Of a DNA stretch of 64,000 bases, positions 14,116-59,135 are shown in pieces. Below the pieces are notes generated by a model. The model made no database searches and was not told the origin of the DNA. It saw only the letters and a list, made by a program, of their open reading frames with translations. The position numbers and the translations under genes are program-made. Each line of letters starts with the position of its first letter. Positions within the stretch are counted from its first letter, which is position 1. Location: contig NC_134027.1 in assembly GCF_964204645.1 (NCBI RefSeq), forward strand, positions 496,001 through 560,000. Direction: 5' to 3'. This stretch comes from Tubulanus polymorphus. Taxonomy: Eukaryota; Animalia; Nemertea.

Positions 14116-15089
14116 CCAAAACAGCTTTTAGCTGGTGAAAACCTACCCCCCCATCGGGGTTAAACATGATCAAGCTATTATTCTAGGAATATAACTGTTG
14201 CAAGGGAAGTTAAGATTCATTAACCTAAACTTGATACAAAGAGATTATTGCTAATTATGAATTTCAAGGGTTTAAAAACTGATTTAAAAATCTTGAAAGA
14301 CGCTCGGTCTCACTAGAGATTTTCATTTTAAAGATTTATTGTCCTCTTACTATTGTTTAGGTGATCTATAATTTGGTAAATGCTGCTGTTGGAAAGATGC
14401 CAGAAGAAAGTTGATTCATGCACATCTTCACTTCACGTATTTATTGCACAAGGCGCCGACTTGCACCTGCACTACACCATTCACACTTCATCACTTCTGC
14501 ATCTTTATCAATTAATTCTGGCATCTATTTGAAAATTACTTTAAACATCAGATCTCAAACTGAAACATTGAGGTATTGAATTTCAAACTGAAATATCGAG
14601 CTATCGAATCTCGATCTCAAATGTTTACTGGAAGCCATATTTGATGTTGTATTATTCATCATAGATTGTTTAGTGTTTTCTGGCATATGCGGGCCATTTA
14701 AGATGGTCAGATAAATTCCCCGGTGGAAAATATATCTCGTGGAAGAGTCATGGAAATGAAAAATATCTTATGTAGATGTGAAGTTAGGAACCTTGCAACA
14801 GTTATTCCACCTGAGGATAATTTGATATAAGATGAATCAGTTATTGGATCATTTAACTGAAGCCAAATATAGTGAAAAATCTTAGTACAAATTTGTCTCA
14901 AACTACAATTGAAAGGACTTATCACAGTTCTAATTCGACTCTAGGTGCGTTCAGAAGAACTTCTTAACAGTGAAAAAACTTGACTAAAAATCAGGAATCG
15001 ACCCTGTTCATTGATAAGATTTGATCTTTATTTGAAGATTAAGAATCAAACTCGCTAATTCACAATTTTTGGTAGTAAATACTGTTGAT

Positions 15090-15286: not shown

Positions 15287-18109
15287 GAATTTGAATATTT
15301 GATACGCGACGCGCGTGATTGAAGCTTTGTTTATGTTCGTGCTTGCCGCGATGAATTGTCATAAATATATCCTCCGTACTGGAGGACCATGAAAAGGTTT
15401 GAAGGGATCCCTAGTTAGCGCCTGTCCAGGTTTGGCTCTGGACCCGCTTGTTCGACTAGACATCTTGTTGGAAATTTTGTCGACTGAAACTTTCGTAACT
15501 TTCGTTTTAGACCTCACTTAGAAACCGCCTTGTTCTTCTGCCGTAGATGTTGACTGTGTCGTACCCACAGTAGTATCATTTGAGATCTTCAAAGTCTCAT
15601 TAGCCATCTTAAATTCAAATAGTTTCGGACATTTGAGGTCCTCATCAACTCCGGGTCTTCATTCAACTGCAGTTACTGCCATTTGCCAGTGTCTGATGTA
15701 GAAGTGTCTGACTTGACATTTTGATTTTCAGAATTAAAACCTTTTTCTATTAAAGAAATTAGATATTGGTTAAAAAAAACGAGTGAATAATTGTTTGTAA
15801 GAAAAAAGAAAATCTTGTTAGAAAAAAATATAGATGTAAAAAAATATTGATGTAAGAAAAAAAAGTATATTGTAAATCGACGAGACAACAGAACCAGCAT
15901 CAGCAACAACAACATCAGAGGAAGCAGTAACCAGTTATTTATCAGCTCCATAAATTACTGAAATGAAATCCACAACTTGGAAACCAGACACACTCGACTC
16001 TAGAATTGTTTATACAACTGTCAACATGGAGTTCATCTCACAAGCAAATTAGGTAATTATCTTATGATTTTGTATGAAATGCTAATTTTACATTTTTGCA
16101 TTTTAGTTTTAATGAGTTTAAAATCACGTTTCATTTGTTGTTTATTTTATCGTTTCAGTTTTCAATTTGCCGAGATTAGTCGTCAGAAAACTGTTACAAT
16201 GGAAACTAAGATAACAAAAACTTGATTCGGCAAAGATTGAAGAAATCTTGCGAAGAGATTGTTCATAGAACTGTCAACATGGAGTTCATCTCCCAAGTAA
16301 ATTAGGTAATTATCTTATGAAATTGGATGAATTGCCGATTTTACATTTTTGCATTTCAAGTAGGTGTAATTGAATGTTTGTCAACCTAACTCTTATAAAA
16401 CTGTGTTAACCGTTGAACAGGATTCTAGAACTGTGCAGAAAACCCGTTATCGCTGCTTTGCAGCTATATTTATCTTATGATTTTGTATGAAATGCTAATT
16501 TTTGCATTTACGTTTAAATGAGTTTAAAATCACGTTTCATTTGTTGTTTATTTTGTCTTTTCAGTTTTCAATTTGCCGAGATCAGTGGTCAGAAAACTGT
16601 TACAACGGAAACTAATGTATCAAAGACTTGATTTGGCAAAGATTGAAGAAATCCTGCGAAAAGATTATCCATGAATTGTTCATACAACTGTCAACATGGA
16701 GTTCATCTCACAAGCAAATTAGGTAATTATCTCATGATTTTGTATGAAATGCTAATTTTTACATTTTTGCATTTAAGTTTAAATGAGTTTAAAATCACGT
16801 TTCATTTGTTTTTTATTTTGTCGTTTCAGTTTTCAATTTGCCGAGATTGGTCGTCAGAAAACTGTTACAATGGAAACTAAGATAACAAAAACTTGATTCG
16901 GCAAAGATTGAAGAAATCTTGCGAAGAGATTGTTCATAGAACTGTCAACATGGAGTTCATCTCACAAGCAAATTAGGTAATTATCTTATGAAATTGGATG
17001 AATTGCCGATTTTACATTTTTGCATATCAAGTAGGTGTAATTGAATGTTTGTCAACCTAACTCTTATAAAACTGTGTTAACCGTTGAACAGGATTCTAGA
17101 ACTGTGCAGAAAACCCGTTATCGCTGCTTTGCAGCTATATTTATCTTATGATTTTGTATGAAATGCTAATTTTTGCATTTACGTTTAAATGATTTTAAAA
17201 TCATGTTTCATTTGTTGTTTATTTTGTCTTTTCAGTTTTCAATTTGCCGAGATCAGTCGTCAGAAAACTGTTACAACGGAAACTAAGATATCAAAGACTT
17301 GATTTGGCAAAGATTGAAGAAATCCTGCGAAAAGATTATTCATGAATTGTTCATACAACTGTCAACATGGAGTTCATCTCACAAGCAAATTAGGTAATTA
17401 TCTCATGATTTTGTATGAAATGCTAATTTTTACATTTTTACATTTAAGTTTAAATGAGTTTAAAATCACGTTTCATTTGTTGTTTATTTTGTCTTTTCAG
17501 TTTTCAATTTGCCGAGATTAGTCGTCAGAAAACTGTTACAACAGAAACTAAGATATCAAAGACTTGATTTGGCAAAGATTGAAGAAATCCTGCGAAGAGA
17601 TTATTCATGAATTGTTCATACAACTGTCAACATGGAGTTCATCTCACAAGCAAATTAGGTAATTATCTCATGATTTTGTATGAAATGCTAATTTTTACAT
17701 TTTTACATTTAAGTTTAAATGAGTTTAAAATCACGTTTCATTTGTTGTTTATTTTGTCTTTTCAGTTTTCAATTTGCCGAGATCAGTCGTCAGAAAACTG
17801 TTACAACGGAAACTAATGTATCAAAGACTTGATTTGACAAAGATTGAAGAAATCCTGCGAAGAGATTATTCATGAATTGTTCATACAACTGTCAACATGG
17901 AGTTCATCTCACAAGCAAATTAGGTAATTATCTTATGATTTTGTATGAAATGCTAAATTTTACTCGTTATTTTTTTACTAATAAGTTGACTTTGAAATCT
18001 TTATTTATTTCTTGTTTATTTTGTCTTTTCAGTTTTGAATTTGCCAAGATTCACATGTAGCAGATATAATGGAATTAAGTATTGAGAACCGCAACTTAAC
18101 AATAAACCG

Positions 18110-18980
18110 GATCAACTTAATATAGTGCTGAGGACCAAAAATAAACAATAAACCCGACCAGTGTAATTCAGTGTCGAGAACCGCAGTTAAACGATGAACC
18201 CGACCAGTGTAATTCAGTGTTGAGAACCACAATTAAACGATGAACCGGACCAGTGTAATTCAGTGTCGAGAACCACAATTAAACGATGAACCTGACCAGT
18301 GTAATTCAGTGTCGAGAACTGCAATTAAATGATGAACCGGACCAGTATAATTCAGTGTCGAGAACCACAATTAAACGATGAACCGGACCAGTGTAATTCA
18401 GTGTCGAGAACCGCAATTAAACAATGAACCCGACCAGTGTAATTCAGTGTCGAGAACCGCAATTAAAGGATGAACCCGACCAGTGTAATTCAGTGTCGAG
18501 ACCAACAATTAAACGATAAACCCGACCAGTGTAATTCAGTGTCGAGGACCACAATTAAACGATGAACCGGACCAGTGTAATTCAGTGCTGAGAACCACAA
18601 TTAAACGATGAACCCGACCAGTGTAATTCAGTGTCGAGGACCACAATTAAACGATGAACCGGACCAGTGTAATTCAGTGCTGAGAACCACAATTAAACGA
18701 TGAACCCGACCAGTGTAATTCAGTGTCCAGAGCCGCAGTTAAACAATGAACCGGACCAGTGTAATTCAGTGTCGAGAACCGCAATTAAACGATGAACCGG
18801 ACCAGTGTAATTCAGGGTCGAGAACCGCGATTAAACGATGAACCGGACCAGTGTAATTCAGTGTCCAGAGCCGCAGTTAAACAATGAACCAGACCAGTGT
18901 AATTCAGTGTCGAGAACCGCGATTAAACGATGAACCGGACCAGTGTAATTCAGTTTCGTAATAACCGCAATTAAACGATT
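18110..18980. repeat. 46-bp minisatellite (gaccagtgtaattcagtgtcgagaaccrcaattaaacgatgaaccs), ~18 copies
   Basis: Period 46 (18156, 18202 and onward). Confidence 0.95.
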
Positions 18981-19149
18981 ATCTGGAGTTGTAATAGTGT
19001 TGTGTATTTGCGTAGTGGATCAAGTGGAAGGATTTTAAGTGTATTTGGTGACTTTAATTCGTTCGCATCCAACAGAATCAACAAAGACATTACAAAAAAC
19101 GACAAAAAATGATTGAATGTAAATGCATTGAATTTAGGTTTGTTGATCA

Positions 19150-20380
19150 AGATAATCACTGATCAAGATTGACAGTTATAATCCATAATTGTTGAACTTG
19201 ATCAGAGATTTTCAAGATCGATTTTAAGGTGATTCAGAAGTTTAAATCTGATGTTTTAATCTCTGGGACTCAGATATTAAATCAATAGATTTTTACTGCT
19301 GAATGATCTTCATGTACAGATGAGCTACAATTGTTCCTAGTGTGTTCTGTTAAGACTGATTAAAGGGTGGAAAAACTTGACTCAAATTCAAATTGAGTCG
19401 AGTTTTTCTAAGATAATCTCTGATCAAGATCGGCAGTTACCGGTATAATCCATAATTGTTGAACTTGATTGGTGATATTCAAGATCTGTTTTAAGGTGAT
19501 TCACAAGTTTAAATCTAATGTTTTAATCTCTGGGTTCCAGATATTAAATCAATAGATTTTTACTGCTGAATGACCTTCGTGTTCAGATAAGCTACAATTG
19601 TTCCTAGTGTGTTCTGTTAAGAAAGGGTGGAAAAACTTGACCCAAATTCAAATTGAGTCGAGTTTTTCCAAGATAATCTCTGATCAAGATCGGCAGTTAT
19701 AATCCATAATTGTTGAACTTGATTGGTGATTTTCAAGATCTGTTTTAAGGTGATTCACAAGTTTAAATCTAATGTTTTAATCTCTGGGTTCCAGATATTA
19801 AATCAATAGATTTTTACTGCTGAATGACCTTCGTGTTCAGATAAGCTACAATTGTTCCTAGTGTGTTCTGTTAAGAAAGGGTGGAAAAACTTGACCCAAA
19901 TTCAAATTGAGTCGAGTTTTTCCAAGATAATCTCTGATCAAGATCGGCAGTTATAATCCATAATTGTTGAACTTGATTGGAGATTTTCGAGAACTGTTTT
20001 TAAGGTGATTCAGAAGTGTGAATCTGATGTTTTAATCTCTGGGTTTCAGAGATTAAATAAATAGGTTTTTACTTCTGAATCACTTCGGGTTTAGGTAAGT
20101 TAAAGTGGTTCCTATTGTAATCTGTTAAACTGATTAAAGGGTGGAAAAACTTGATTCAAATTAATAATCTGAATCAAGTTTTCCAATGATAATCCGCGAT
20201 CAAGTTCGGCAGTTATAATTCATAACTGTTGAACTCAATTCACAATTAAATGAACTGTTTTTAAGGTGATTCAGAAGTATAAATCTGATGTTCTAATCTC
20301 TGGGTTTCAGAGATTAAATCAATAGGCTTTACTTCTGGATCACTGTTAGGTTTTGATAAGTTGTAAGTTGTTCCTATTGT
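19150..20380 (+). ncRNA. Tandem array (~255-262-bp unit, ~4.7 copies) with three stem-loops per unit; candidate hairpin-RNA / miRNA-like cluster
   Basis: Stems at 19154-19210, 19226-19310 and 19369-19408 recur in each unit; G-U pairs favour the + strand and there are compensatory changes between copies. Confidence 0.55.
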
Positions 20381-25435: not shown

Positions 25436-27025
25436 TTAGCCCCACGTGCTGAGTGGATGATAGACATCATGAGACTCATCAAATTTTGAGAAATTAGTTT
25501 AATTGAAAAATTAATCTAAGCAATGTCTGTTTTTGCATTTCAGAGGTTGATGTTACCTGAACATGCAGTTCTGAGCTGACTCCAGATCAGGTGAGCATGT
25601 ATGCAGTGAAATTGGATAAAATCATGAGATTTTCCAAGAGCTCTTATTAGTGGAATTTTGTCTCTAATAGCCCTTGATCCAAGTGCTGCCCTGTGAGACA
25701 CTGTCTGGTGAACTCAACATCCAAGTGCTGCAGAATCTACCCCCAGTGAGACACTGTCTGGTGAACTCAACCTCCAAGTGCTGCAGAATCTACCCCCAGT
25801 GAGACACTGTCTGGTGAACTCAACATCCAAGTGCTGCAGAATCTAGGTTTGAATTCTCTTAGATTTTTTAAACCTAAAATTCTAAGATATTCTGTGAAGA
25901 CAACAATTTGACCAGTTGTCCTTTTGACTGCATGTTTTGAGTGATTTCCAATTAGCTACATGATTCAATGTGTGGTTGTCAAATGGCTCAATATTTCCCA
26001 AACCATTTTCTAATTTATAACTGTCAAAATTCATTTGTTCAATCATGAGGTCTAGAATTGGTTTTCATTGAATACATGAAATCCAGATATTTTATTTGTT
26101 GATTTCAAAATTATTTATTTCGCCGATTCCTTTCTAATCTCACTTTGGCAACTCATTCTGAATCAGCGACGGAAGGTGACAAACTGGTCACATCGAAATA
26201 CGCTGTGCTCGGTGCCTCGGGATCCGAACCGAAACCTGACCGCACGTATAAATTCAATTGAATCCATTCGGGTTCTTCCTTTTCTTAGTTAAACTTGTTT
26301 CTGTGGTTGCGAGACGGCGGGAAGAAAAATAGCGGTGGCGGTAAGGGGGGTGGTAGCCCTTTAAGTGAATATGCTCGGTGACAGGGATGGCGAAAGGCCA
26401 CCCGGGGAGGACGATAGCATGAGGGCATCGGACGCTCCTTTACTGAACCGCGGATTCTGGGGCCCGAGAGTATCGTGTGTATGATCACTTACTCGATAAG
26501 GTAGTCATGTGCATCAAGAGATACGGGCATTTCTATCCTAGCCTCAGTTGTCTGCGGGGACGCACCTTAAAACAGTTTGAAAAAATCACCTCGAACATGT
26601 TTAAGCATAATTCACGGGCGCAAAAAAGAATAAACAGAAAGAAAGAAAGAGGTGTCGGTCGTTTTTATAAACCACTAGGGGCGAGTTAAGCTTAGACGAG
26701 GAATTTGGCATCTTAGAAATATATTCGAAATTCCTAGGTTTTAATAGAGAATTCAGCAGGGAAAATATTTGAGTATTTTATGTGATTCAATTCTAAATTG
26801 TAACCTCATCGTGCAATGTATTTTATTGGAATGAACTTAAACATGCAGGCTGGACTTTCACGTGATGTTTTGAAATATAGATTCAGGAACATTGACAATT
26901 CCTGATTTGAAGCACATGTTTTTACCACAAAGCAGTTAAACTTTACTCTATCTACTGTATGATTACATTCTAACATGTATTTCTTTCCATTATTTTTCTA
27001 TCATTCACGCCGAGATCATCTACTC

Positions 27026-27484
27026 CCAGTGAGAACTGTCTGGTGAACTCAACATCCAAGTGCTGCAGAATCTACCTCCAGTGATACACTGTCTGGTGAA
27101 CTCAACATCCAAGTGCTGCAGAATCTACCCCCAGTGAGACACTGTCTGGTGAACTCAACATCCAAGTGCTGCAGAATCTACCCCCAGTGAGACACTGTCT
27201 GGTGAACTCAACATCCAAGTGCTGCAGAATCTACCTCCAGTGAGACACTGTCTGGTGAACTCAACATCCAAGTGCTACAGAATCTACCCCCAGTGAGACA
27301 CTGTCTGGTGAACTCAACATCCAAGTGCTGCAGAATCTACCCCCAGTGAGACACTGTCTGGTGAACTCAACATCCAAGTGCTGCAGAATCTACCCCCAGT
27401 GAGACACTGTCTGGTGAACTCAACATCCAAGTGCTGCAGAATCTACCTCCAGTGAGACACTGTCTGGTGAACTCAACATCCAAG
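27026..27484. repeat. 53-bp minisatellite (ccagtgagacactgtctggtgaactcaacatccaagtgctgcagaatctaccc), ~9 copies; 3 more copies at 25690-25846
   Basis: Period 53 read directly. Confidence 0.95.
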
Positions 27485-38467: not shown

Positions 38468-39040
38468 GTGGTACCACTGCTGGAGCACCTGATGTACCGG
38501 CCTGGGTGGTACCACTGCTGGAGCACCTGATGTACCAGCCTGGGTGGTAACACTGCTGGAGCACCTGATGTACCAGCCTGGGTGGTAACACTGCTGGAGC
38601 CCCTGATGTACCGGTCAGGGTGGTACCACTGCTGGAGCACCTGATGTACCGGTCAGGGTGGTACCACTGATGGAGCACCTGATGTACCGGTCAGGGTGGT
38701 ACCACTGCTGGAGCACCTGATGTACCGGTCTGGGTGGTACCACTGCTGGAGCACCTGATGTACCGGCCTGGGTGGTACCACTGATGGAGCACCTGATGTA
38801 CCAGCCTGGGTGGTAACACTGCTGGAGCACCTGATGTACCGGTCAGGGTGGTACCACTGCTGGAGCACCTGATGTACCGGCCGGGGTGGTACCACTGCTG
38901 GAGCACCTGATGTACCGGCCTGGGTGGTACCACTGATGGAGCATCTGATGTACCGGTCAGGGTGGTACCACTGCGGGAGCACCTGATGTACCGGTCAGGG
39001 TGGTACCACTGATGGAGCACCTGATGTACCGGCCTGGGTG
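38468..39040. repeat. 38-bp minisatellite (ggtggtaccactgctggagcacctgatgtaccggcctg), ~15 copies, starting inside a minus-strand MPKA-type exon
   Basis: Period 38; the minus strand begins ttctag|ATGCCTAAGGCGGTCACCCAGGCC. Confidence 0.95.
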
Positions 39041-40029: not shown

Positions 40030-42250
40030 ACTTACACTCGGTAGAAATAAGCGTACGAACTCCTTCCGTCGGAACGCACGACTTAACCGAAATATCAGTG
40101 CTGTAAAACAAAAAATACAATTCATTATAATCACATACATTAATTACAAACTCAAATTCAAGAGCAGTTTGAACTGTGTCTCATGAAACTGAACCCAGAT
40201 GAATCCAGTTCATTCAGGAATGAGAATTTGTAGTTTTTTCTAAATCTTTTTAAGCTTGCCGACAAGACGAGCGAACACCGGCATAAATATCGAACATGTT
40301 TAATGTCGGCGGGCGACGAAATCACCGTGACGGCCGATTTATAGATAGATCGGTACCCGCTCGTATCGGGCGTATAAATTCACCGGCGAATTTAATCGTC
40401 GCGATCGGGCAAAAAAATGGATACGCTCGTGTCCTTCTAGCTTTATATCATATTACTATTTAATAACGTTAACTCCTCCCGCCAGAACGCACAACTTAAT
40501 CTAAATATTAGTGCTCGTAAAACAAAAAATACAATTAATAATATCCTATCGGGAACCAAGTTTCTTTTAAATTCCCCCACCAAATCCTCAAACGGGCATT
40601 CTTCTAAAATTTGCAGAACTGTAAAATAAAAATAGAGAGAAATACATTAAACAACAAGTCGAATGGTTTCGATGCTACGGCTATGAATATCATTCCAACA
40701 GGGGGCGCCTGATGTTACTTAAGTTTGATTTCAATGTAATCGTGTTGGTCTGGCAGCGATCGCTGATTGGACCGTATAGGCCCCGGCTATCATTAGAGAT
40801 TTTAGTCAGGATTTTTATGAACCCACTCTTGGAAAAATTCCTGGATCAGTAACAAACGTCACACTAAAGGATATTGTATGAAAATAGTTAAACTACTTAC
40901 ACTCCGGTAGAAATAAACGTACGAACTCCTTCCGCCGGAACGCTCGACTTAATCTAAATATCAGTGCTGTAAAACAAAAAATACAATTAATAATATCCTA
41001 TCGGGAACCAAGTTTCTTTTAAATTCCCCCACCAAATCCTCGAACGGGCATTCTTCTAAAATTTGCAGAACTGTAAAATAAAAATAGAGAGAAATACATT
41101 AAACAACAAGTCAAATGGTTTTGATGCTATGAATGCTTTTACAAAAGGGGGCGCCTGATGTTATTTATTTCAATGTAATCGTGTTGGGCTGGCAGTGATC
41201 ATTGATTGGACTGTTTTAGTGTTTTTGGAATTGCCAGGAAAAGAATACTAGAGGACCAAAGGTCCTGTGGTCTCCTGTTTTGATAAACACAGTACAATTG
41301 TGATTTTTTTAAGTAACACAATTAATTATTTTTTCCTCTCAATGATTTGCAACTTATTCATACTGAACAAAATTTTAATTAGATTTGAAGTTTGCGCTGA
41401 ATGAAATGAAATTCGATTTGTTTGTTTAAATCTGAATGAAATTGAATCAAATTTTTATGCTTCTTCGGCAACTACTCGAGAAAAAACACTATTTTACTAA
41501 AACCTTACGCAATTGTCATAAATACATTTTCTGTAAAATAGTGTATTCTGATTGGTTCTATTCTGATTGGTTCTAATCTAGGGTGGATACAAGCTTCCAC
41601 TGTTTTCCAGAATATAGTCAGAAAATGTGACTAACATAACTTCTAGAAGTAACTAATCTGACAGGTCCGTACAGCTAACTCAGTCAGGTTGTGAGCCATA
41701 ACAACCTATAAAAAGGCTCTGGCCGTCTCTTAAGACCCACTAGGGTTACACTGTTACTTGCAGTTGATAATTCCGCAACTATTTCTTTATGCAAATGCAT
41801 TCAAATAGACAGATATAACAGGCTACATATCGTCATTATAGGATTAATTTGTTGAATGTTTTTATTAGATTTTGAGGAGATATCACAGGCCCGGATCCAG
41901 GGAGGGTTTCAGGGGTCGTGACTCCGCTGATCAGCTACCAAAAATTTTAAAAATTCGTTTTCTTGAAGGAATGTAAATGCTTACTCGAGACAAGCCAAAA
42001 AACCGGTACCATATGATCTTATGTTTGGCCAAACAATATGCCGTATAGGCCCCGGCTATCATTAGAGATTTTAGTCAGGATTTTTATGAACCCACTCTTG
42101 GAAAAATTCCTGGATCAGTTACACACGTCACACTAAATGATATTGTATGAAAATAGTTAAACTACTTACACTCTGGTAGAAATAAACGTACGAACTCCTT
42201 CCGCCGGAACGCTCGACTTAACCTAAATATTAGTGTTCGTGCTTGACAAA
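40030..42250 (-). pseudogene. Mosaic of inverted gene A fragments: exon d copies (40036-40100, ~40471-40515, 40901-40966, 42170-42235), truncated exon e copies (~40539-40618, ~40990-41070) and intron d-e
   Basis: Reverse-complement identity to 8460-10295 in rearranged blocks. Confidence 0.85.
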
Positions 42251-42909
42251 ACTAGTTTGAATAAGAGCTGTTTGTTTTAATGAGATGAACTGAATCAACA
42301 GAATTATGTAACTGAACCTAAGTGTGTCCAGTTCCCAAATAAGGATTTGTGTTTTTCTAACCCATTTACGTAAGATATCAACAGACAGGGTTCATTCAGA
42401 GGTCAATCCTAGATGTCCCTCCCTTGAGAAGAATGACATTTCAGGTCATCAACAGATTAAAATTCATTTAAAATCTGAATCTTTGGCTTTTCTATAAACA
42501 GATTGCAGATTGCATTGGCTTGAAACCTGCTTTTGGCATCTAGAAAAATAAGTAAAAATCATTTGAAAATACATTTTATAATGAGTCCGTCAAACAGTTC
42601 AATACTTTCTTTCACTTATTCTTAACAAAGTATGAATAAATTAGCATGAAAACAGTAAATTTGTAATTGCAGCAGCTTAGCGGCTTGAAGTCGAAGGGTC
42701 TGCCCCCCCCGGGTTTTTCTCTGAGCTTTCGGCATCTAGTAAGATAACTATGATATAATGATATTAATAGAAAAATTTAAAGTAAAAGTATTAAATAAAT
42801 TGAAGATACATCATATAATCGAGGCAGTCAAACAGTTCAGTACTTTCTTACAACTATTCTTAAGCATGGTATGAATGAATAAGCATGGAAGCAGTAAATT
42901 TGTACTTAC

Positions 42910-42975
42910 TTTATTATAGGGGCTCGATGTTGAGGGCCCCGCGCCCCGCGTTTTCTTTATCGCTTTTGGCATTTT
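42910..42975 (-). CDS. Candidate start-codon exon of the gene A family: MPKAIKKTRGAGPSTSSPYNK (phase 0 donor)
   Basis: ttttacttgtttttctag acceptor, ATG at 42972-42970, gtaagt donor; damaged paralogs at ~39050, ~39160-39210, ~42540, ~42670-42736, ~43085-43149 and ~56725-56789. Confidence 0.45.
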
Positions 42976-43221
42976 CTAGAAAAACAAGTAAAAATATTAA
43001 ATCATTTGAAACTGGACCCAGGGGTACAAAATACTAAGTATTGGATGAATAAATAAGCATGGAAGCAGTAAATTTGTACTTTCTATTTCGTATGGGCTCG
43101 AAGTTGAGGGGCCCGCGCCCCGGGTCTTTCTTTGTGCTTTTGGCATAATCTAGAAAAACAAGTAAAAATATTAAATCATTTGAAAAATATATCAGTCAGT
43201 CTTATTCTGGTTCAGTGAAGT

Positions 43222-44760
43222 AATTCTCTATATGGTGCATGTAGGGGTCCAGGGACACCACATCCACTAATTCTTTATATGGTGCATGTAGGGGTCCAGG
43301 GACACCACATCCACTAATTCTCTATATGGTGCATGTAGGGGTCCAGGGACACCACATCCACTAATTCTCTATATGGTGCATGTAGGGGTCCAGGGACACC
43401 ACATCCACTAATTCTCTATATGGTGCATGTAGGGGTCCAGGGACACCACATCCACTAATTCTTTATATGGTGCATGTAGGGGTCCAGGGACACCACATCC
43501 ACTAATTCTTTATATGGTGCATGTAGGGGTCCAGGGACACCACATCCACTAATTCTTTATATGGTGCATGTAGGGGTCCAGGGACACCACATCCACTAAT
43601 TCTCTATATGGTGCATGTAGGGGTGCAGGGACACCACATCCACTAATTCTCTATATGATGCATGTAGGGGTCCAGGGACACCACATCCACTAATTCTCTA
43701 TATGATGCATGTAGGGGTCCAGGGACACCACATCCACTAATTCTCTATATGGTGCATGTAGGGGTGCAGGGACACCACATCCACTAATTCTCTATATGAT
43801 GCATGTAGGGGTCCAGGGACACCACATCCACTAATTCTCTATATGGTGCATGTAGGGGTCCAGGGACACCACATCCATTAATTCTCTATATGGTGCATGT
43901 AGGGGTCCAGGGACACCACATCCACTAATTCTCTATATGATGCATGTAGGGGTCCAGGGACACCACATCCACTAATTCTCTATATGGTGCATGTAGGGGT
44001 GCAGGGACACCACATCCACTAATTCTCTATATGATGCATGTAGGGGTCCAGGGACACCACATCCACTAATTCTCTATATGGTGCATGTAGGGGTCCAGGG
44101 ACACCACATCCATTAATTCTCTATATGATGCATGTAGGGGTCCAGGGACACCACATCCACTAATTCTCTATATGGTGCATGTAGGGGACCAGGAACACCA
44201 CATCCACTAATTCTCTATATGATGCATGTAGGGGTCCAGGGACACCACATCCACTAATTCTCTATATGGTGCATGTAGGGGTCCAGGGACACCACATCCA
44301 CTAATTCTCTATATGGTGCATGTAGGGGTCCAGGGACACCACATCCACTAATTCTCTATATGGTCAGGAACACCACATCCACTAATTCTCTATATGATGC
44401 ATGTAGGGGTCCAGGGACACCACATCCACTAATTCTCTATATGGTGCATGTAGGGGTCCAGGGACACCACATCCACTAATTCTCTATATGGTGCATGTAG
44501 GGGTCCAGGGACACCACATCCACTAATTCTCTATATGGTGCATGTAGGGGTCCATGGACACCACATCCACTAATTCTCTATATGGTGCATGTAGGGGTCC
44601 AGGGACACCACATCCACTAATTCTCTATATGGTGCATGTAGGGGTCCAGGGACACCACATCCACTAATTCTCTATATGGTGCATGTAGGGGTCCATGGAC
44701 ACCACATCCACTAATTCTCTATATGGTGCATGTAGGGGTCCAGGGACACCACATCCTCTA
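43222..44760. repeat. 47-bp satellite (aattctctatatggtgcatgtaggggtccagggacaccacatccact), ~33 copies
   Basis: Period 47 read directly. Confidence 0.97.
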
Positions 44761-45554
44761 TTCTGTTTGGGGCATGGAGATTGCCCAGATTGCCTCTGCT
44801 AACAACAGACACCCATTCAACATTTCTCTTTATGGTACTTTCTTCTTCCTCTTTTCTATCATTTTACAAATTGATTTTCAACTATGACCTGTTTTATTTT
44901 GATATGATGTTTATCTTTACATCATGGTCGCTGGAGATTGTACAAGGAATGATACAAGAAATAATATCCTTAGTTTTAAACTCACAGCTGTTTGCAATTC
45001 TTTCATTTAATCACAGGTTCAATTGAAACGATGCATTCCTATACATATACGCAATCATATCTTTTTTCGAGTCATCATTCTCAGGGAAATTTGATCTCCA
45101 CTCAGGTACAGTCAACCCCTGGCTTGCCAGTTATCCTTTAACTTTTTTACAAAATTATCTTTTCAAAATGAATTACCATGAAAGCAGTAAATTTGAACTT
45201 GCCTTATCATAAGGGGTTTTTCTTTTACTCTTTGTTTTAGCTTTATGTATCTTTGATTTGCTGGTGGTTTTAACATGCATGTCGAGGGAGCTCTCAATCC
45301 AGGAACAGTCAGCTCACAAGCAGCCCCTGCCCCAAAAGGTTTTGACATATTTTCAAAAGCTCTAGTTGTTCCGTAGAACCGAGAGCGGAGCTCTGACTTG
45401 TTCCCCTCACTGTTGAGGTCTACTTTCTCTGATTCGCTGATTGGCTTCTCTTTGGTATATTGGATGATCAAAAACTAGAATCTGTCATGCGTTTATTCAT
45501 TTTGGTATATGTTAAAATTATTTTTCCAGTAAAGGCATATTAAGCACATCAAAA

Positions 45555-47260
45555 CAAATCCGGAATTGTCCCCGAACGAAGTGGCTCCCTCCACTCTCCA
45601 TCAGTATGCCGGGCCACCACCTCTACCTCTCGGGCCACTCGATCGTTTGGTGAGTGAACGAGTGACCGCCCGAAATACCGATGGAGAAGCAGGACCCTCC
45701 CCAGCCCCACCACAATCCCTCCTCGGCCTCTTCCCCCTATCTAACCCTGCCCCGTCGTCCTGATTACCTTGATTAGCTGCACCATCCGCAGGGGCAACTC
45801 TTGCCTCCCCTCCCTGAGGAACCTTGATCTTTCGTATATATTTGAATTCCCCAAGGGCCCATCAGCATAAGAAAAATTGAATGCGGAATAGAATTGATTT
45901 TTTTACGCAATAGCCCGCAGCTACTAAAAGTCCCAAATGGGCTAAAAACTCTAAATTCTTCATACAATGACTAGGCAAACTGGACCGAGGGCAAACTTAT
46001 TAAAATGCTTGCTTTATAACAAATTTGGCCTTTAAAATTCGACCATATATGAATAGATAAAATCACTGTTCATACTTCTATCAATAACATTTTTAGTACT
46101 TTCTAAAGTTGACGACTTTGCTGTTGTTCATTCTTCCTCTGCATTTTTACTTTCTAAAGTTGATTCATTAATATACCGAATTTTTATACAATCTTCGCCG
46201 GCTCATCGGCTGACGACTTTGCTGTGTGATAAAATCACTGTTCATATTTATTTCTATGAATAACAGTGTCCGCCGGGGGGGGGGGGGGGGGGGGCGTCCA
46301 CTTTCACTCGCATCAACGTTTGTTCTATTTGTCGATATCGATGAATCATCTGATTCTTCTTCGGTGGTTTTAATACTTTAATTTATTATGTCTATACAAT
46401 GTGGTATAATTAATTTTAATGCAGCCCGATGATCGAATGCGTCTATTAGTTTAAAACAGACATCTGTTAAACAAAATACAATTCATTATCAGTTAAAAGG
46501 ATATTTTATGGAAATAGTTACTACTACTTACAATGGGGAATTATTAATTTCAGCACCGCTCGGCAGTTGACGGCGTCTATTAGTTTATACAACACGTCTG
46601 TAAAACAAAATACAATTCATTATAATCACGCGTTAATTACAGAACTAGTTTGAATTCTAAAGCAGTTTGTCTGAGGTGAACTCTTGCCTCCCTTCCCTGC
46701 GGAGCCACGACCACCGGAACTTTTCTTTTCCTTTTGTTTTTCTTTTTAGGCGGTGGCCGTGTCTGTAAAGAGAAAAAATTAAAAAATTTGTTGAGTATAA
46801 AATTAAACACGAGTATAAAAATTCAGAATGAGAAAACCAGCGATTCAGCAAATAAAACACCTATACGTAGTTAGGATATCGTGTCACAAGGTGGCGTTTA
46901 GGTATAGCTATGAGCAATCACCTTGACTTGGCCAGCTGTGCGTCCTTCGCTAGTTGCCTAGTGAGGGAATGATTGACTGCCCACAATAGCAGGACCCGCA
47001 CCATCCCCAGCCCCACCACCATCCCTCCTCGGCCGCTTCCTATTTATCCCCTCCCCTTCCTCCCGATTACCTTCGTCAGCCGCACCATCCGCCGGGACCA
47101 CTCTTGCTCCTCCTCCCTGCGGAGCCACGACGACCGCAACTTTTCTTTTCCTTTTTGTTCGAGTTTTTTTTGGCGGTGGTCGTGTCTGTAAAGAAAGAAA
47201 AAGTGAAAAATTTGTTTAGTATAAAATTAAACACTACATAAAAAATCAGAATGAGAAACC
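45555..47260 (-). pseudogene. Cluster of truncated or degenerate copies of terminal exon f (45555-45820, 46676-46762, 46988-47185) and remnants of the exon-d acceptor region
   Basis: Reverse-complement similarity to 11430-11910. Confidence 0.8.
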
Positions 47261-47572
47261 AGCGAATCTATTATCAGTTAGATAATTCACTAAAACTGAC
47301 TCATTGTACTTAAAAACATCAAACTAGAATTATTATAACTTACTGGTAAAACCCGCCTTTCAAATGGCGTTGGCGCTCGAGTCGGGGCAGGAGCATTGGT
47401 ATTCTAGAAAAAATGAAATTATTTCATATAAATGAAAAATATACAAATTCACAGAACACAATTTCATGCTACAGTCAGGCCGTAGAGTGAGATATATTGA
47501 ATTAGTTATAACTCTAAAATGGGTGATGAATGTTTGAGCTCTAATAGCTGAAGTTCCTGGTTTCGCAGATAC

Positions 47573-48026: not shown

Positions 48027-48629
48027 CTGAAAATACAATCAAAGACAATGTTAAAAACCTGATCTGATTTGTATAGTGTAAGTAAATGGTTTTGGGGTTC
48101 GGACCGTCTGCCCACACGAGAACACCCGACCCTCGCGCTACTGCTGCATTTGACTGCTCGGTGCGTCTGAGGAGCCTTGATGGACAGAACACACCATTGA
48201 TGGAATAATGGTTAATTCAGTCTAACCTCGTTAAAACTCTGTAAATGTGAGTTAAACTCATTGAAATTCCCTTATGTTTACCATGAGGTAACATTGAACT
48301 GGTTTTTCAGTTTTTCTCCACTCGTCTATAACGGGCTATCAATCAATATGGTCGAATGTGCAGAATGTTCCAGCTGATAAAAACTGGGTTCCAAAATAAT
48401 CGGCCCTTTGCATGTGATGATGCAAACGATCAGGCTGGGTGCACCCTGGTATAGATTTGACGATGCAGTAATGTATGACGGACATTACCTGTCAGTAGCA
48501 GAAGCAGGGTTTAATATTCTATATATATAAATTTCGGTTTCAAGCTCAAGAATGATGACTTCAAACAGGCGTTTACGATAACTTACGTCAATCCCAGACA
48601 TGGAAATGTTAAAACGTTGTTGCATATTC

Positions 48630-48678
<49 letters not shown>

Positions 48679-48680
48679 GA
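48630..48680. repeat. (TTG)n microsatellite; paralog at 56423-56487
   Basis: Read directly. Confidence 0.95.
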
Positions 48681-48724
48681 GTTCTCTATAAAAGAGAAAA
48701 CATATTCATACAATGACAAGAAAT

Positions 48725-51700: not shown

Positions 51701-54700
51701 GCCTTGGCCGGACCGGACTGGATGTACAGTTCCCAGTGATGCCTGGACCGGACCGGACTGGATGTACAGTTCCCAGTGATGCCTGGACCGGACCGGACTG
51801 GATGTTCAGTACCCGGTGATGCCTGGACCGGACCAGATGTTCAGTACCCGGTGATGCCTGGACCGGACCGGACTGGATGTTCAGTACCCAGTGATGCCTG
51901 GAATGGACTGGTGCTCAAAGCTGCTGGACCGGACCAGATGTTCAGTACCCGGTGATGCCTGGACAGGACCAGACTGGATGTACAGTTCCCAGTGATGCCT
52001 GGACCGGACCGGACTGGATGTACAGTTCCCAGTGATGCCTGGACCGGACCAGACTGGATGTTCAGTACCAGGTGATGCCTGGACGGGACCAGATGTTCAG
52101 TACCCTGTGATGCCTGGACCCAACCGTAGCTTGAGGCCGCCCGGACCGGACAAGATGTTCAGTAACCGGTGATGCCTGGACTGGACCGGTGCTCGGAGGT
52201 GACCGCACCGGACTGGATGTACAGTTCCCGGTGATGCCTGGACCGGACCGGTGCTCGGAGTAGCCCGGACCGAACCCGAGTTCCTGTGCGATATCTGGGA
52301 AATACCATTCGGACAGTGAACCAGCTGAACCATTGATTGACTGGTGACTGACCGGCACTAGAGAACCAGCGATCCTCCTCAGAGAATGGAGTTGGGAAAC
52401 CAACCTTGCTAGTACAGCTGGCGACCGCTGTTACTTTCTGAAATAGAGACATCAATCGGTACATCGACAGAAACTGTACTTTCTGTTTCTGGGACTTCTC
52501 GGCCCGAACCCATAGATCTTCCGACCACAATCCGCAAGTCCAGGAAGGATTAACTCATATAACGCCCGATGTAGCCAAACAGGATGAACACAGAACGTAA
52601 TCAGGGCCCGAACAGATGACCGCATCCCTCACGATGACGACGCTGGACTTTAGCAGGGAGCGGCATTATCGCATTCAAAATACAACAATTAAATATTCGG
52701 TTTAAATATAACAGATATTTTAACGTTATAACTTACATAATATTATAACATACACGCAATTCAAGAAAGATGCACTGATTTGATTTGATTCAAACAAAAA
52801 TAAAATTCACGAGGGAACAAAAACAGAACAAACTCACTGCATAGAGAGTACAAGTGTCTCTTAAATTCCTAAATCCCTTAGAGACAAAATCAAACACCTT
52901 CTTATAAAAAACGCCAAGAAAAAGGATGGCTAAATGCAATACAGCAGAGCCGGGTCGTATAGAAAAACCGCTGGCGATCATTCAATCCAAATTGGCAAAA
53001 AACATAGGAAAGGGTCCGGTACTCGATGGAAATATGATATTGTATTTTGTCTCACACCTGACGTCACGGAGTTATGAAAACTAGTCACAACTTTAACCGT
53101 TTTAACGCCATACAAAAAATTGAATGCGTTGAAATTGTATTTGAAGACTGAACTTACTTCTTGCTTGCAAGTCGGGAGGCGTCTCCGGCGGGAGGGGTGC
53201 GCTGCTGCTGCTGCTGCTGTTTGACAACTATAAATAGAAATAATATATAAATCAATGCAACAGAAAATGAACACAACAGGTACTGATTACACGGTAGTTC
53301 AGTAGAATGAAGGGGTCTGGGTACAAAAACGTGTATTCTAAGATTATCAGTATATATTTTCTTGAGGAATTTCATAAAAATGGTTACATTAGGAGGGAAG
53401 TGAGGCATGTGAGATTGAGGGCGTCACTGATACTTACATTTAGAGATGGAGAATGCGCAAGGCGACCGATATGACCCTAGAAATGAAAATAAAAAAAATA
53501 CATTAGTCAAATTCATTAACGGTTGAATTTTTAAACATTTTCATTATGACGTTCATTAGTTCAAGGTGCTGGTTTTTTAGACAATTTCAATAAGAGAAAA
53601 GTATTCAGGTATAGCTAGCACTATATCAGGAACGTAGCTTGAAGCGGTTCAGGGGGGTTCGAAAATTCAGTTCCTTACAAAGAAAAATTAAAAACAGAAA
53701 TGTTAAACTTACAAATATTAAAATTTGTTCATTCAATCAAAACCTTGTTAATCAATCTCCCAGAGGCAATTTATCTGGGCACGTTTTCAAAATTTGTTTT
53801 GGTTAGGAGACCCCGTTCTGGTCCAGTCAAACGCTACGGACCTGTCTATGGCAATAGCTAATCAACATTGATATAATTATCACCGGTCGCTGTGGTCAAT
53901 ACACCGTGCATTGTTAAACTTGATAGGCGTTCATTTCCTGTATATGAGGGCGCTGCTGGTTACCTCGCTTCAGTATTAGGGAATAGATGGAGCCACTTGT
54001 CGAATCATACTCGATTTATAAAGCTAACTCCACTGTATAGATGGCGCCACTCACCATGATTTCCACGGAAACTAGAATATATACTTAGTAAGCAGAATAT
54101 GAGTGGGAAGGGTTTCAAGCGTAATATCAAAATATTGATTTGATCGGTTTAAAAATCTCCAAAACGCTTTCATTTCACAACAAAGTTAAACATCCGTTTT
54201 CTAACTTTACTTTATCACACGCCAAACAATGGGATACCCGCAGTTTTACTGTGGCAATCGAGGATTCCACTTATGGCATGCGAGGATCCACCAGGTGTCG
54301 CTAGTAAATAGTTGGTCGTCTGCGTTCGATTTTCTTGTACATTTCAATTAAATCTGAATGAATTGTTCTCTTAAATGAATCAATTATTAATGAAAACTAA
54401 ACCGATATCAGAGTAGAAGAATGAAAGTATTTCTTCTTCAAACCAGTTCAAAGTTCATTGAAAATGAACTAATTTTGACAACGAACGACCTACTACTCGT
54501 TGCGCCATCTGGTGGAATAGCTGGTTTTGCGGGTATCCCATATATCAAATATCACACTTATGGCGCCATCTAACGGTAAAAGTAATACGCACAGGTTTTT
54601 AAACACGGAGGATATTAATATAAGGTGACGAACACCTTTTAAACATTGGAACGAGGAAATACAACAGATTGATATCATACATTGACACGCGAGACCAAAT

Positions 54701-55529
54701 ACTCTTATACAACAGACCCTTAACTCAAAAAGTCAATATGAAAAATAACAATTTCATTACATTTATCACAAATCTATTGATTCACAGCAGGTTCATATTT
54801 GCTGTGTTTTGATCTCATGGTTGTTGATCCAATTACAAGACCGATATCAATGTATGGTATATCAATATATTCTATCAAATAAAAATATTAATGTATTATT
54901 AAAATATTAACGGTATAACTAGGGGTGCAGGGACCCACTTTGGAAGTGGTCTGAAATGCTCGACGATCTGACATTTTCAAATTTAACTCCCCCTGGTTTA
55001 AAAGGAACCAAAGACATTGAAACTCACTACACATATACAGAACATGTCATGAGATTATTTATAACTTTATTTATAACTAGAGCAAAAACCTGCTCTATAC
55101 TGATATATATTAAACTCTGATTTCAATGTAATATAACAACAACAGAATTGATCCTAAAGCGCTGATTTTGCCGGGGAAAAAAATGGTCATACAAGTCCGC
55201 CATCTTAATTCCAATTGTGCCAATATTTTGAGTTTGAGTAGTTTGAGTATATAAACCAATTATCAACACGATAAATCAAAAACTAGCCGAGACAACTGGA
55301 CGCAAAGTGAACGCAATAACTATAGTCCCGAGTGAGATAAAAAATAAATTAGTTTGAACTTAAAATTCAAGATCAATGTTTAATGTCTTAGTCCACGTGC
55401 TGTATCGGTGATATGTTCTGTAAAGATAAAATAAAACAAAATATTAGATGGATATTCATGAATGCATGTATCACTGATTCGGGTTTTCAATAAAAACTGA
55501 TTAACGAATGATAAGTTAATTTTGCAGCA
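48725..55529 (-). pseudogene. Inverted ~6.8-kb duplicate of 1-6677 (exons a, b, c plus the DIRS-like element, truncated within RT); exon-a donor lost
   Basis: Near-identical reverse complement; paired ORFs in the track (853/54493, 2123/53154, 2550/52790, 5583/49498). Confidence 0.95.
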
Positions 55530-56434
55530 AATTCTCCAAGATTAGAACAAAACCAGTAGTTATATAGTAGAGGCTTTTGGGTCATGAAGCAAATTAAGTA
55601 GTAAATATAACACTTAATTTAAATGACAACTGTAGAGATAGCATCATTAATATATGACTTCTACGATGATGACACTTAATCGAATTTGAATTTATTCCTA
55701 ATTAGCATAATTTATGCAAAACAGCTACTGCCCTCTATTTTCAAATTACAAATTGAAATAAGCGTGATTTATAAGAAAATAGTTTGGCGTAGTAGGCAGC
55801 GAACCGCTGGGCGGCGTTGACGGCAAAAACTGAAAATACAATCAAAGACAATGTTAAAAACCTGATCTGATTTGTATAGTGTAAGTAAATGGTTTTGGGG
55901 TTCGGACCGTCTGCCCACACGAGAACACCCGACCCTCGTGCTACTGCTGCATTTGACTGCTCGGTGCGTCTGAGGAGCCTTGATGGACAGAACACACCAT
56001 TGATGGAATAATGGTTAATCAGTCTAACCTCGTTAAAACTCTGTAAATGTGAGTTAAACTCATTGAAATTCCCTTATGTTTACCATGAGGTAACATTGAA
56101 CTGGTTTTCCAGTTTTTCTCCACTCGTCTATAACGGGCTATCAATCAATATGGTCGAATGTGCAGAATGTTCCAGCTGATAAAAACTGGGTTCCAAAATA
56201 ATCAGCCCTTTGCATGTGATGATGCGAACGATCAGGCTGGGTGCACCCTGGTATAGATTTGACGATGCAGTAATGTATGACGGACATTACCTGTCAGTAG
56301 CAGAAGCAGGGTTTAATATTCTATATATATAAATTTCAGTTTCAAGCTCAAGAATGATGACTTCAAACAGGCGTTTACGATAACTTACGTCAATCCCAGA
56401 CATGGAAATGTTAAAACGTTTTTGCTGTTGCTGC

Positions 56435-56477
<43 letters not shown>

Positions 56478-56859
56478 GCTGTTGCTGCGCTGTACCCTAT
56501 AAAAGAGAAAACATATTCATACAATGACAAGAAATAGGACGGACGCGAAATCAGAGTTTATCTAACAGTTTATCTCCAGGATGGATGTGGCTGTGAAATC
56601 AGACAGTTTATCTCTAGGACGGACACGCCTGTTAAATGTTGCCACTGGTTACCTCGAACACAAACTTACGTCGATCCCAGACATTGAAATATCAAAGCGT
56701 TGTTGTTGTTGTTTTTCAGTTCTGTTATTATAGGGGCTCGATGTTGAGGGCCCCACGCCCCGAGTTTTTTTCATTGCTTTTGGCATTATCTAGAAAAACA
56801 AGTAAAAATATTAAATCATTTGAAAATATATCAGTCAGTCTTATTCTGGTTCAATGAAC

Positions 56860-58035
56860 TAATTCTCTATATGATGCATTTAGGGGTCCAGGGACACCAC
56901 ATCCACTAATTCTCTATATGATGCATGTAGGGGTCCAGGGACACCACATCCACTAATTCTCTATATGGTGCATGTAGGGGTCCAGGGACACCACATCCAC
57001 TAATTCTCTATATGGTGCATGTAGGGGTCCAGGGACACCACATCCACTAATTCTCTATATGGTGCATGTAGGGGTCCAGGGACACCACATCCACTAATTC
57101 TCTATATGGTGCATGTAGGGGTCCAGGGACACCACATCCACTAATTCTCTATATGGTGCATGTAGGGGTCCAGGGACACCACATCCACTAATTCTCTATA
57201 TGGTGCATGTAGGGGTCCAGGGACACCACATCCACTAATTCTCTATATGATGCATGTAGGTGTCCAGGGACACCACATCCACTAATTCTCTATATGGTGC
57301 ATGTAGGGGTCCAGGAACACCACATCCACTAATTCTCTATATGATGCATGTAGGGGTCCAGGGACACCACATCCACTAATTCTCTATATGGTGCATGTAG
57401 GGGTCCAGGGACACCACATCCACTAATCCTCTATATGGTGCATGTAGGGGTCCAGGGACACCACATCCACTAATTCTCTATATGATGCATGTAGGGGTCC
57501 AGGGACACCACATCCACTAATTCTCTATATGGTGCATGTAGGAGTCCAGGGACACCACATCCATAAATTCTCTATATGGTGCATGTAGGGGTCCAGGGAC
57601 ACCACATCCACTAATTCTCTATATGGTGCATGTAGGGGTCCAGGGACACCACATCCACTAATTCTCTATATGGTGCATGTAGGGGTCCAGGGACACCACA
57701 TCCACTAATTCTCTATATGGTGCATGTAGGGGTCCAGGGACACCACATCCACTAATTCTCTATATGATGCATGTAGGGGTCCAGGGACACCACATCCACT
57801 AATTCTCTATATGGTGCATGTAGGAGTCCAGGGACACCACATCCATAAATTCTCTATATGGTGCATGTAGGGGTCCAGGGACACCACATCCACTAATTCT
57901 CTATATGGTGCATGTAGGGGTCCAGGGACACCACATCCACTAATTCTCTATATGGTGCATGTAGGGGTCCAGGGACACCACATCCACTAATTCTCTATAT
58001 GATGCATGTAGGGGTCCAGGGACACCACATCCTCT
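56860..58035. repeat. Same 47-bp satellite, ~25 copies; part of the direct duplication ~43085-45820 / ~56725-59135
   Basis: Identical unit and shared flanks. Confidence 0.97.
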
Positions 58036-58823
58036 ATTCTGTTTGGGGCATGGAGATTGCCCAGATTGCCTCTGCTAACAACAGACACCCATTCAACATT
58101 TCTCTTTGTGGTACTTTCTTCTTCCTCTTTTCTCTCATTTTACAAATTGATATTCAACTATGACCTTTTTCATTTTGATATGATGTTTATCTTTACATCA
58201 TGGTTGCTGGAGATTGTACAAGGAATGATACAAGAAATAATATCCTTAGTTTTAAACTCACAGCTGTTTGCAATTCTTTCATTTAATCACAGGTTCAATT
58301 GAAACGATGCATTCCTATACATATACGCAATCATATCTTTTTTCGAGTCATCATTCTCAGGGAAATTTGATCTGCACTCAGGTACAGTCTACTGGCTTGC
58401 CAGTTATCCTTTAACTTTTTTACAAAATTATCTTTTCAAAATGAATTACCATGAAAGCAGTAAATTTGAACTTGCCTTATCATAAGGGGTTTTTCTTTTA
58501 CTCTTTGTTTTAGCTTTAGGTATCTTTGATTTGCTGGTGGTTTAAACATGCATGTCGAGGGAGCTCTCAATCCAGGAACAGTCAGCTCACAAGCAGCCCC
58601 TGCCCCAAAAGGTTTTGACATATTTTCAAAAGCTCTAGTTGTTCCGTAGAACCGAGAGCGGAACTCTGACTTGTTCCCCTCACTGTTGAGGTCTACTTTC
58701 TCTGATTCGCTGATTGGCTTCTCTTTGGTACATTTTGGATGATCAAAAACTAGGAACTGTCATGCGTTTATTCATTTTGGTATATGTTAAAATTATTTTT
58801 CCAGTAAAGGCATATTAGGCACA

Positions 58824-59135
58824 TCAAAACAAATCCGGAATTGTCCCCGAACGAAGTGGCTCCCTCCACTCTCCATCAGTATGCCGGGCCACCACCTCTA
58901 CCTCTCGGGCCACTCGATCACTCGCCAGCTTTTTGGCGAGTGAACGAGTGACCGCCCGAGATACGGATGGAGGAGCAGGAGGAGCAGGACCCGCACCTGC
59001 CCCAGCCCCACCACCATCCCTCTTCGGCCTCTTCCTATTTATCCCATCCCCGTCCTCCCGATTACCTTCGTCAGTCGCACCATCCGCCGGGACCACTCTT
59101 GCTCCTCCTCCCGCGGAGCCACGACGACCGCAACT
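58824..59135 (-). pseudogene. 5'-truncated copy of terminal exon f
   Basis: ORF 58824-59168 matches ORF 11617-11952 (GGARVVPADG...LRSGTIPDL). Confidence 0.85.

Follow-up and report, generated by a model that had tools for sequence, protein, structure and literature searches.

The region analysed is a 64,000-nt stretch of the nemertean Tubulanus polymorphus genome (RefSeq assembly GCF_964204645.1, contig NC_134027.1, positions 496,001 to 560,000 of the forward strand), called the window below and numbered from its first letter. Its DNA is AT-rich and of animal type, tandem arrays are numerous, and there is one multi-exon gene, which is repeated. The plus-strand copy of the gene has six exons, a to f, starting at 113, 2055, 2304, 8857, 10215 and 11560, all six with AG/GT ends and compatible phases, and it is apparently intact from exon a to exon f. 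Further copies form a jumbled array, inverted and partial, between about 39000 and 59200; those on the minus strand are mostly truncated or without splice sites, and their breakage may be recent. In the exon numbering used for the family (E1 to E9), a is E4, b E5, c E6, d E7, e E8 and f E9. The exons are all predicted, on the basis of their AG/GT ends, reading frame and synonymous bias. The parts of the plus-strand copy and its nearest counterpart needed here are:

2055-2093, plus strand: exon b (E5), with 20 of 39 bases unlike its copy and 1 of 300 in the flanking intron unlike
2304-2373, plus strand: exon c (E6), 70 nt, AG/GT bounded, its end in phase 1
2700-7230, plus strand: decayed, frameshifted reverse-transcriptase remnant inside the c-d intron, with reverse-transcriptase motifs at 6382-7195 (RVT_1 E-value 0.008, below the Pfam cut-off)
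8857-8922, plus strand: exon d (E7), acceptor intact
53158-53227, minus strand: second copy of exon c, its end full-length
53438-53476, minus strand: copy of exon b with other sequence, of equal length, the last five residues kept with four synonymous changes

The 6.5 kb between exons c and d are largely tandem arrays and the reverse-transcriptase remnant, a partial inverted copy of which ends at 48725. The LDLKDAY and YLDDWL motifs of the remnant are reminiscent of DIRS-type retrotransposons, and its presence in this intron shows only that there was retroelement activity nearby. Minisatellite arrays lie at 3209-4732, 7585-8399, 12563-14116, 16003-20380, 25689-27484, 38468-39040, 43221-44779 and 56858-58055, some of them within gene introns, and a 47-bp array precedes two E1 copies. 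E1 and the intron following it are tandemly repeated at 42529-43149 (minus strand) in units of about 175-240 nt; in the raw genomic reads described below, the number of E1 units varies, and there are more in-frame, lysine-rich E1 variants with similar flanks (3-13 reads each).

Several other family members have structures of their own. On the minus strand, the copy at 47611-47400 has a crossover between lineages inside exon a: the intron and first 12 nt are of the recent lineage, after which come a longer exon, in which a KPGTS motif is repeated, and a downstream intron of diverged sequence. Next to it, at 47344-47402 (minus strand), is an exon-like 60-nt piece bounded by AG/GT (N-T-N-A-P-A-P-T...), for which no counterpart was recognised in the plus-strand copy. 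The E2 copies at 48587-48685 and 56388-56496 (minus strand) carry polyglutamine tracts of differing make-up between identical intron ends, and a 59-nt imperfect inverted repeat in the coding sequence of exon f (11779-11837) is retained in a second copy (58903-58961).

The last exon (11560-11952, plus strand) predicts a protein end that is basic and nuclear-localisation-like. It contains AVTRS and RLRSG motifs, which we take to be reminiscent of nucleosome acidic-patch-binding peptides such as those of HCMV IE1 and KSHV LANA/IL-33; the gene family could encode an orphan chromatin-binding protein. Word-index searches found no protein relatives of exons e and f, and an ESM Atlas search with protein pieces found no relatives of these. 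Among four exon pieces compared with Pfam there was no domain above threshold, with two sub-threshold DUF hits for exon f. The sole HMMER hit among 1.84 billion proteins was rejected, being a 52-residue tandem repeat whose score summed weak matches, and pattern scans of metagenome and viral contigs gave 0 matches.

At 42235, a minus-strand copy of exon d begins without its acceptor. The features around it, all on the minus strand, are:

40471-40518: incomplete copy of exon d whose acceptor (40513) has a one-base insertion and reads ACGAG, like the end of the patch; exon-start variant as at 42235
40991-42169: d-e intron, kept with its donor, and the first 80 nt of exon e; 94-98% like 8923-10294 of the plus-strand copy
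42170-42235: exon d (E7) copy, 66 nt, with 8 differences from the plus-strand copy, 7 of them synonymous
42236-42245: 10-nt patch resembling the exon c (E6) end and standing in register with exon d; it replaces the final 41-45 nt of the intron, acceptor included
42246-42374: remnant of the 3' region of the c-d intron, of a diverged lineage, with no good acceptor remaining
46532-46690: exon d paralog of the diverged lineage (P-lineage), its intron end intact; likeness to the plus-strand copy 27/66 in the exon, 59/65 and 30/34 in the flanks

The sequence from 42245 to 42236 on the minus strand is CAAGCACGAA, and the first base of exon d follows at 42235. It is identical at nine of ten positions to the last 10 nt of exon c (2364-2373, and likewise 53167-53158), so the exact register that the first-pass annotation had seen between exon c-like bases and exon d stands, as does its reading of the frame across them, Q-A-R-T-L-I-F. 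The probability of a 9/10 match that it had put at about 3e-5 under uniform base usage becomes 3.6e-5 per fixed site with window composition. Matches of at least 9/10 occur at 8 of the 127,982 10-mers of the window, two of which are exon c itself, and the chance expectation of such a patch over some 30 exon-start copies is about 1e-3. The likeness to exon c ends at 10 nt, with no extension leftwards.

Beyond the patch, as had been claimed, the sequence returns to intron. Compared with three 3' ends of the c-d intron, the upstream DNA scores 54, 58 and 46, each reached by 0 of 500 shuffles; with four other introns as controls, the scores were reached by 185-295 of 500. It is closest to 46690-46646, a diverged lineage, and the missing intron end, acceptor included, amounts to 45 nt measured on the plus-strand copy or 41 nt on the diverged lineage. 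An in-frame stop lies 16 nt upstream of the patched exon d. A family branch that lacked the c-d intron from the start, which would have undone the annotation's reading, is rejected on the evidence of the upstream DNA, which by homology is a remnant of the 3' end of that intron and carries an in-frame stop. The retained downstream intron is likewise borne out, with its donor and 98% likeness to the plus-strand copy over 692 nt. A full retrocopy is rejected as well: the d-e intron and donor are kept, the c-d intron remnant lies upstream, and the patched unit thus has intron sequence on both flanks, where a processed pseudogene would lack all introns as one unit. Judged by these alignments, the patched copy is chimeric: its upstream intron is of the diverged lineage, its exon d, a recent one, and all that follows are of the plus-strand copy's lineage, and the ten bases like exon c lie between them. 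The neighbouring stretch 40471-40995 (minus strand) is also chimeric, a tandem unit present twice, in which a TATTA microhomology links the first 80 nt of exon e back to the acceptor of exon d.

The patch is present in raw genomic reads (X6; 1,934 million letters, about 12 in 100 of the run, under a study code different from that of run X1 described below). Read depth is 21-22 at the patch, about 19 in the upstream intron and 66 in exon d, the patch region having the lowest depth across the 1.6 kb compared with reads. Loose read ends occur at 42235 (19 reads) and 42228 (10 reads), both continuing into a normal acceptor, and none at 42245; among these loose ends there was no longer exon c extension at a 3-read threshold. 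The patch is variable at 42239: its arginine codon, which had been described as a synonymous AGA>CGA change, is CGA in 12 of 21 reads, and in the other 9 it is GGA (Gly), so that the change is not always synonymous. A 568-nt contig of run X1 spanning 42232-42741 carries the GGA patch followed by another exon start, T-L-A-F-R-I, also found in five loose-ended reads; its upstream intron has 9 other letters than the window in about 510 nt, plus gaps. As X1 is a possible source of the window, it is not independent support. Of the further runs compared with the region, X5 contributed a single piece, spanning the exon d donor, and X7 and X8 contributed none, which has no bearing on expression. Upstream intron variants in 10/19, 16/19 and 3/17 reads imply at least three haplotypes. 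Variable places number 19 in exon d and 1 in the patch, 11 of the 20 synonymous as single changes, and 3 in 80 nt of upstream intron, where depth is lower.

An assembly or polishing artefact is therefore rejected for the patch, which raw reads span at 42245 without loose ends and in two variants: it is real, inherited and polymorphic. Among the junctions and lesions described here, this check by reads covered the patch only. The patch may represent either one locus in a pooled sample or several loci; a large multi-copy branch would be a speculative reading, the depth at the patch being the lowest of the stretch.

A survey of family copies for similar junctions, as the first-pass annotation had proposed, found the end of the previous exon (8-9 of 10 bases) before 3 of the 27 catalogued exon starts in the window, a count in which two of the three joins had first been spotted by eye; the other 24 match at only 1-5 of 10 bases. 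The further joins and the splice-site lesions, all on the minus strand, are:

46170-46463: diverged exon d paralog running into exon-e-like codons, with no donor and one stop; candidate second intron-less join
55390-55417: copy of E4 (exon a), first four bases changed and the donor G deleted
55782-55829: copy of E3 in which a 9-nt deletion, starting at the exon end, has taken away the donor; the sequence resumes at AAC, the three bases with which the next exon of the same copy begins
56670-56789: whole E1 (66 nt) joined exactly to E2, intron absent; open frame of 40 codons, then a GT donor

At the E1-E2 join (56724/56723) both exons are whole, and 10 of 12 nt are like the E2 start. The join at 46398/46397, between exon d of the copy starting at 46463 and exon-e-like codons, is a candidate with weaker evidence: 11 of 20 nt are exon-e-like (reached by 0.8% of window 20-mers), and five residues give a BLOSUM score of 12 (0.2%). 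Two of the four intronic indels of two long duplications begin at a donor (p 1.8e-4). The donor change at 43149, a single GT-to-GA substitution, was left out of the tally of possible spill-over events.

A stronger signal across the family, overlooked by the first-pass annotation, is divergence confined to exons: in recent duplicates, exon differences exceed those of the adjoining introns by up to ten- to thirty-fold. In the 3.2-kb duplication of 1-3200 and 55529-52330, differences number 17/132 in exons and 13/3063 in introns (p 8e-17); between 48725-47596 and 56536-55402 they number 15/152 and 8/968 (p 1e-8), and between the patched copy and the plus-strand copy 8/66 and 6/528 (p 3e-5). Among ten pairs, which share copies and are not independent, the exon excess has p<0.05 in four, is borderline (0.056) in one and falls short of significance in five. 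Exon f is without excess (2/198 vs 1/81) and exon c differs little (2/70). For five pairs pooled, picked from twelve as recent and non-overlapping, there are 26.2 synonymous differences per 64.5 sites (pS 0.41), 22.8 non-synonymous per 199.5 (pN 0.11) and 5 per 758 in the flanks (0.007). The change is sharp at the exon edge: in four pairs, gap columns left out, 16 of 79 differ in the last five exon bases and 0 of 59 in the first five intron bases. The diverged exon d paralog is 41% alike in its exon and about 90% in its flanks, and the exon d pair has 7 synonymous codon differences and 1 non-synonymous. Several of the divergent copies are broken, having lost a donor or been truncated.

CpG decay was rejected as the source of this divergence, accounting for only 9 of 65 exon differences. 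On the coding strand the differences are AG 30, CT 29, AT 22, AC 16, CG 13 and GT 10; 52 of the 120, unpolarised and from overlapping pairs, do not involve A. Adenine-specific substitution is a feature of the mutagenic homing of diversity-generating retroelements, and in lacking it the family differs from such systems. Exon variants appear in more than one copy: exon d at 42235 is 3 bases from that at 40966 and 8 from that at 8857, with their introns equally close (3, 3 and 4 differences). Positive selection on point mutations offers no route to a synonymous excess over introns, which points instead either to replacement of exons from long-diverged working paralogs or to homogenisation of introns.

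The reading that we prefer, at a probability of roughly 0.55, is localized conversion, happening again and again, with the spliced transcripts of paralogs or their cDNA as donors; the patch would be a spill-over scar of it. A paralog's mRNA, the cDNA made from it or an intron-less gene copy would serve as template, pairing exon by exon with a genomic copy, and the copying enzyme might be a retroelement reverse transcriptase or a host polymerase. The usual outcome would be rewriting of the exon alone, the introns being left. Copying past the exon edge could yield loss of a whole intron (56724/56723, perhaps 46398/46397) or a short patch beyond which the intron resumes (42245, and perhaps 55784 with its 3-nt rejoin). 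The patched copy would then have persisted, its exon part changing again between haplotypes. Donor exons would be under purifying selection in working paralogs, and the synonymous excess would arise because that selection had shaped them; intron differences would not travel with exon changes because the donor is spliced, and a spliced donor would also account for splice sites being damaged rather than repaired.

The exact register of the patch and the two further joins in the same family are best accounted for by a spliced template. To judge from the diverged paralog, a genomic donor is more alike in its introns than in the exon, yet intron differences do not accompany exon changes. Broken copies also keep exon differences, which selection there should not now guard. 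The annotation's interpretation is supported in part: a spliced template remains the best account of the patch, while the single event originally implied is not borne out, with two patch variants and at least three upstream haplotypes. The c-d splice, which it took the patch to support independently, is a prediction that the patch by itself does not prove. The same scar would equally be produced by an intron-less DNA copy or cDNA, and not by RNA-templated break repair alone.

Some observations weigh against a spliced template. Introns are kept at 24 of the 27 exon starts, and recombination with cDNA usually strips introns; with no more than 19 of 39 bases common to the two copies of exon b, a donor would have little homology on which to pair; the exon excess is significant in only four of ten pairs; loose read ends showed no longer exon c extension at the 3-read threshold; and the patch is just 10 nt long, its one-base difference between haplotypes such as an ordinary point change could make. 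The precedent of the L/M opsins, where exon divergence at synonymous as well as non-synonymous sites exceeds that of introns without involvement of RNA, as the gibbon work reports it (PMC3213168), weighs on the same side.

That precedent favours the main competitor, concerted evolution at the DNA level, which we regard as possible and hold at a little under half the likelihood of the spliced-template reading. The introns of old paralogs would be homogenised by frequent gene conversion, with selection and mismatch-stopped tracts keeping the exons distinct; the joins would be ordinary intron losses, and the patch the remnant of an intron-less copy recombined into a diverged intron. The region is rich in DNA rearrangements, including at least one lineage crossover inside an exon (the 47611 copy), and non-synonymous differences are present (pN 0.11), both as this account would have it. 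The tracts, however, would have to stop within a few bases of both edges of exons only 27-66 nt long. The 7 synonymous codon differences against 1 non-synonymous in the exon d pair also count against it, as do the exon differences kept in broken copies; homogenisation should mend splice sites, yet lesions cluster there; and exact joins would still require an earlier spliced template. Taken by itself, the patch calls for a template that was spliced or intron-less under most of the readings.

Another possibility, which we consider improbable, is that the intron has shifted in a working branch of the family, with Q-A-R the start of a longer exon d behind a new acceptor, either TAG 16 nt upstream (phase 0, fitting after E1) or AAG 6 nt upstream (phase 1). 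Both candidates keep the frame, which is open in the CGA and GGA variants alike; the same contig has copies of E1 at 300-500 nt upstream, and sliding of introns that remain similar, or occur as near pairs, is described in Drosophila (PMC2891723, in the part considered here). The two in-frame candidates, however, score -8.9 and -3.9, far below the 6.0-18.9 of 16 of 17 family acceptors (leave-one-out, on a set that includes near-duplicates and one site mis-set by a base). No exon c with a shortened end occurs in the window, the block 47600-42246 has no exon c of any kind, and the crossing of the intron by exon-c bases would be left unexplained.

Slightly less probable again is error-prone self-templating, in which a gene's own transcript is copied back with errors, or a targeted exon mutator, in either case filtered by selection. 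It would give sharp-edged, exon-only change and the same spill-over scars, and deep lineages too differ more in exons than in flanks. Against it stand exon variants common to several copies, such as that at 42235, which is nearer to 40966 than to 8857, and a substitution spectrum that is not adenine-specific. Least plausible of all is a chance filler at a rearrangement junction, the acceptor having been deleted and a 10-nt insertion resembling exon c by accident: the region has many junctions and the 10 nt are also like local motifs (exon c starts TTGTCAA, and CAC is repeated), but only about 1e-3 such matches are expected over all exon starts, and the exact register, open frame and two further joins also count against it.

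By itself the ten-base patch is a modest curiosity; its value lies in its company, several scars of a spliced template in a family whose exon divergence is base-sharp and rich in synonymous change. Exons that outpace introns even at silent sites are usually ascribed to selection and intron homogenisation, or left unexplained, as for the toxin exons discussed below; here the DNA of the same family also shows spliced junctions and splice-site damage, suggestive of a spliced template. A broader proposition is tentative, and we think it distinctly less likely than the localized conversion proposed above: in the germ line, the spliced transcripts of paralogs would repeatedly serve to rewrite the exons of an orphan multi-copy gene, exon by exon and base-exact, leaving introns untouched and occasionally spliced junctions behind. 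Such an RNA-templated exon-shuffling system would be a candidate mechanism for toxin and other hypervariable families, in which exons change and introns do not. If a spliced template were confirmed across the whole genome and in RNA, information would have passed from RNA to DNA between paralogs in the nucleus of an animal, often enough to be counted, and the family would be a natural and heritable record of it; an RNA-template model of exon hypervariability would become directly testable. If only DNA-level concerted evolution holds, the result is a striking but known phenomenon with a few intron losses. At title and abstract level, with thin coverage of subscription journals, no animal nuclear family combining exon-sharp synonymous divergence with spliced-junction scars was found in the literature.

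Known systems share parts of this pattern. In the Drosophila intron sliding described in the portion of PMC2891723 used here, as at the patch, coding bases come to lie on the other side of a homologous intron, and the introns at both positions here are homologous (0/500 shuffles). Sliding would, however, move the donor equally, and both exon c copies in the window end in full; neither a strong new acceptor nor a shortened upstream exon was found here. ASSET, the segment switching of snake three-finger toxin exons (PMC2474615), whose mechanism the sections considered state to be unknown, likewise changes short exon segments radically while introns stay alike. The present family differs in having no sign of a toxin gene, in the change of whole small exons up to their splice sites, in the dominance of synonymous change, and in its spliced-junction scars, which suggest a candidate mechanism.

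In the L/M opsins of gibbons, exon divergence exceeds intron divergence through DNA conversion, and it resembles the divergence here in including synonymous sites of paralogs (PMC3213168, main findings). Those are two intact genes under known selection, for which the part of that report considered here describes no joins or splice-site lesions, whereas in this family pS is about 0.4 and the flanks differ at only 0.007, the exons are tiny and broken copies occur.

In human cells, repair of double-strand breaks templated by spliced mRNA deletes whole introns precisely (PMC12065846, in outline), and spliced RNA there leaves a precise exon-exon junction in DNA, of the kind found in the window at 42236/42235 and 56724/56723. 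Removal of a whole intron with both exons complete is seen at the E1-E2 join and is likely at 46398/46397; it is not what happened at 42235. The human events, as outlined there, are whole-intron deletions, somatic and rare, whereas the main case here keeps most of its intron, is inherited and goes with exon-wide replacement.

A further similar system is the localized retroprocessing, or cDNA-mediated conversion, of plant mitochondria, with tracts from a few bases to about 1 kb (PMC4987113, as far as its account was used here). There too a processed transcript overwrites part of a gene, some introns being lost and others staying, over several rounds. The present family, unlike the mitochondrial genes described in that account, is nuclear, spliceosomal, animal and multi-copy, and its donors would be other paralogs; the marker is synonymous divergence between paralogs, in place of RNA editing, and at the patch, unlike the cases in that account, part of an intron remains. 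With these differences, the patch works like localized retroprocessing, and not like whole-intron loss or a retrocopy.
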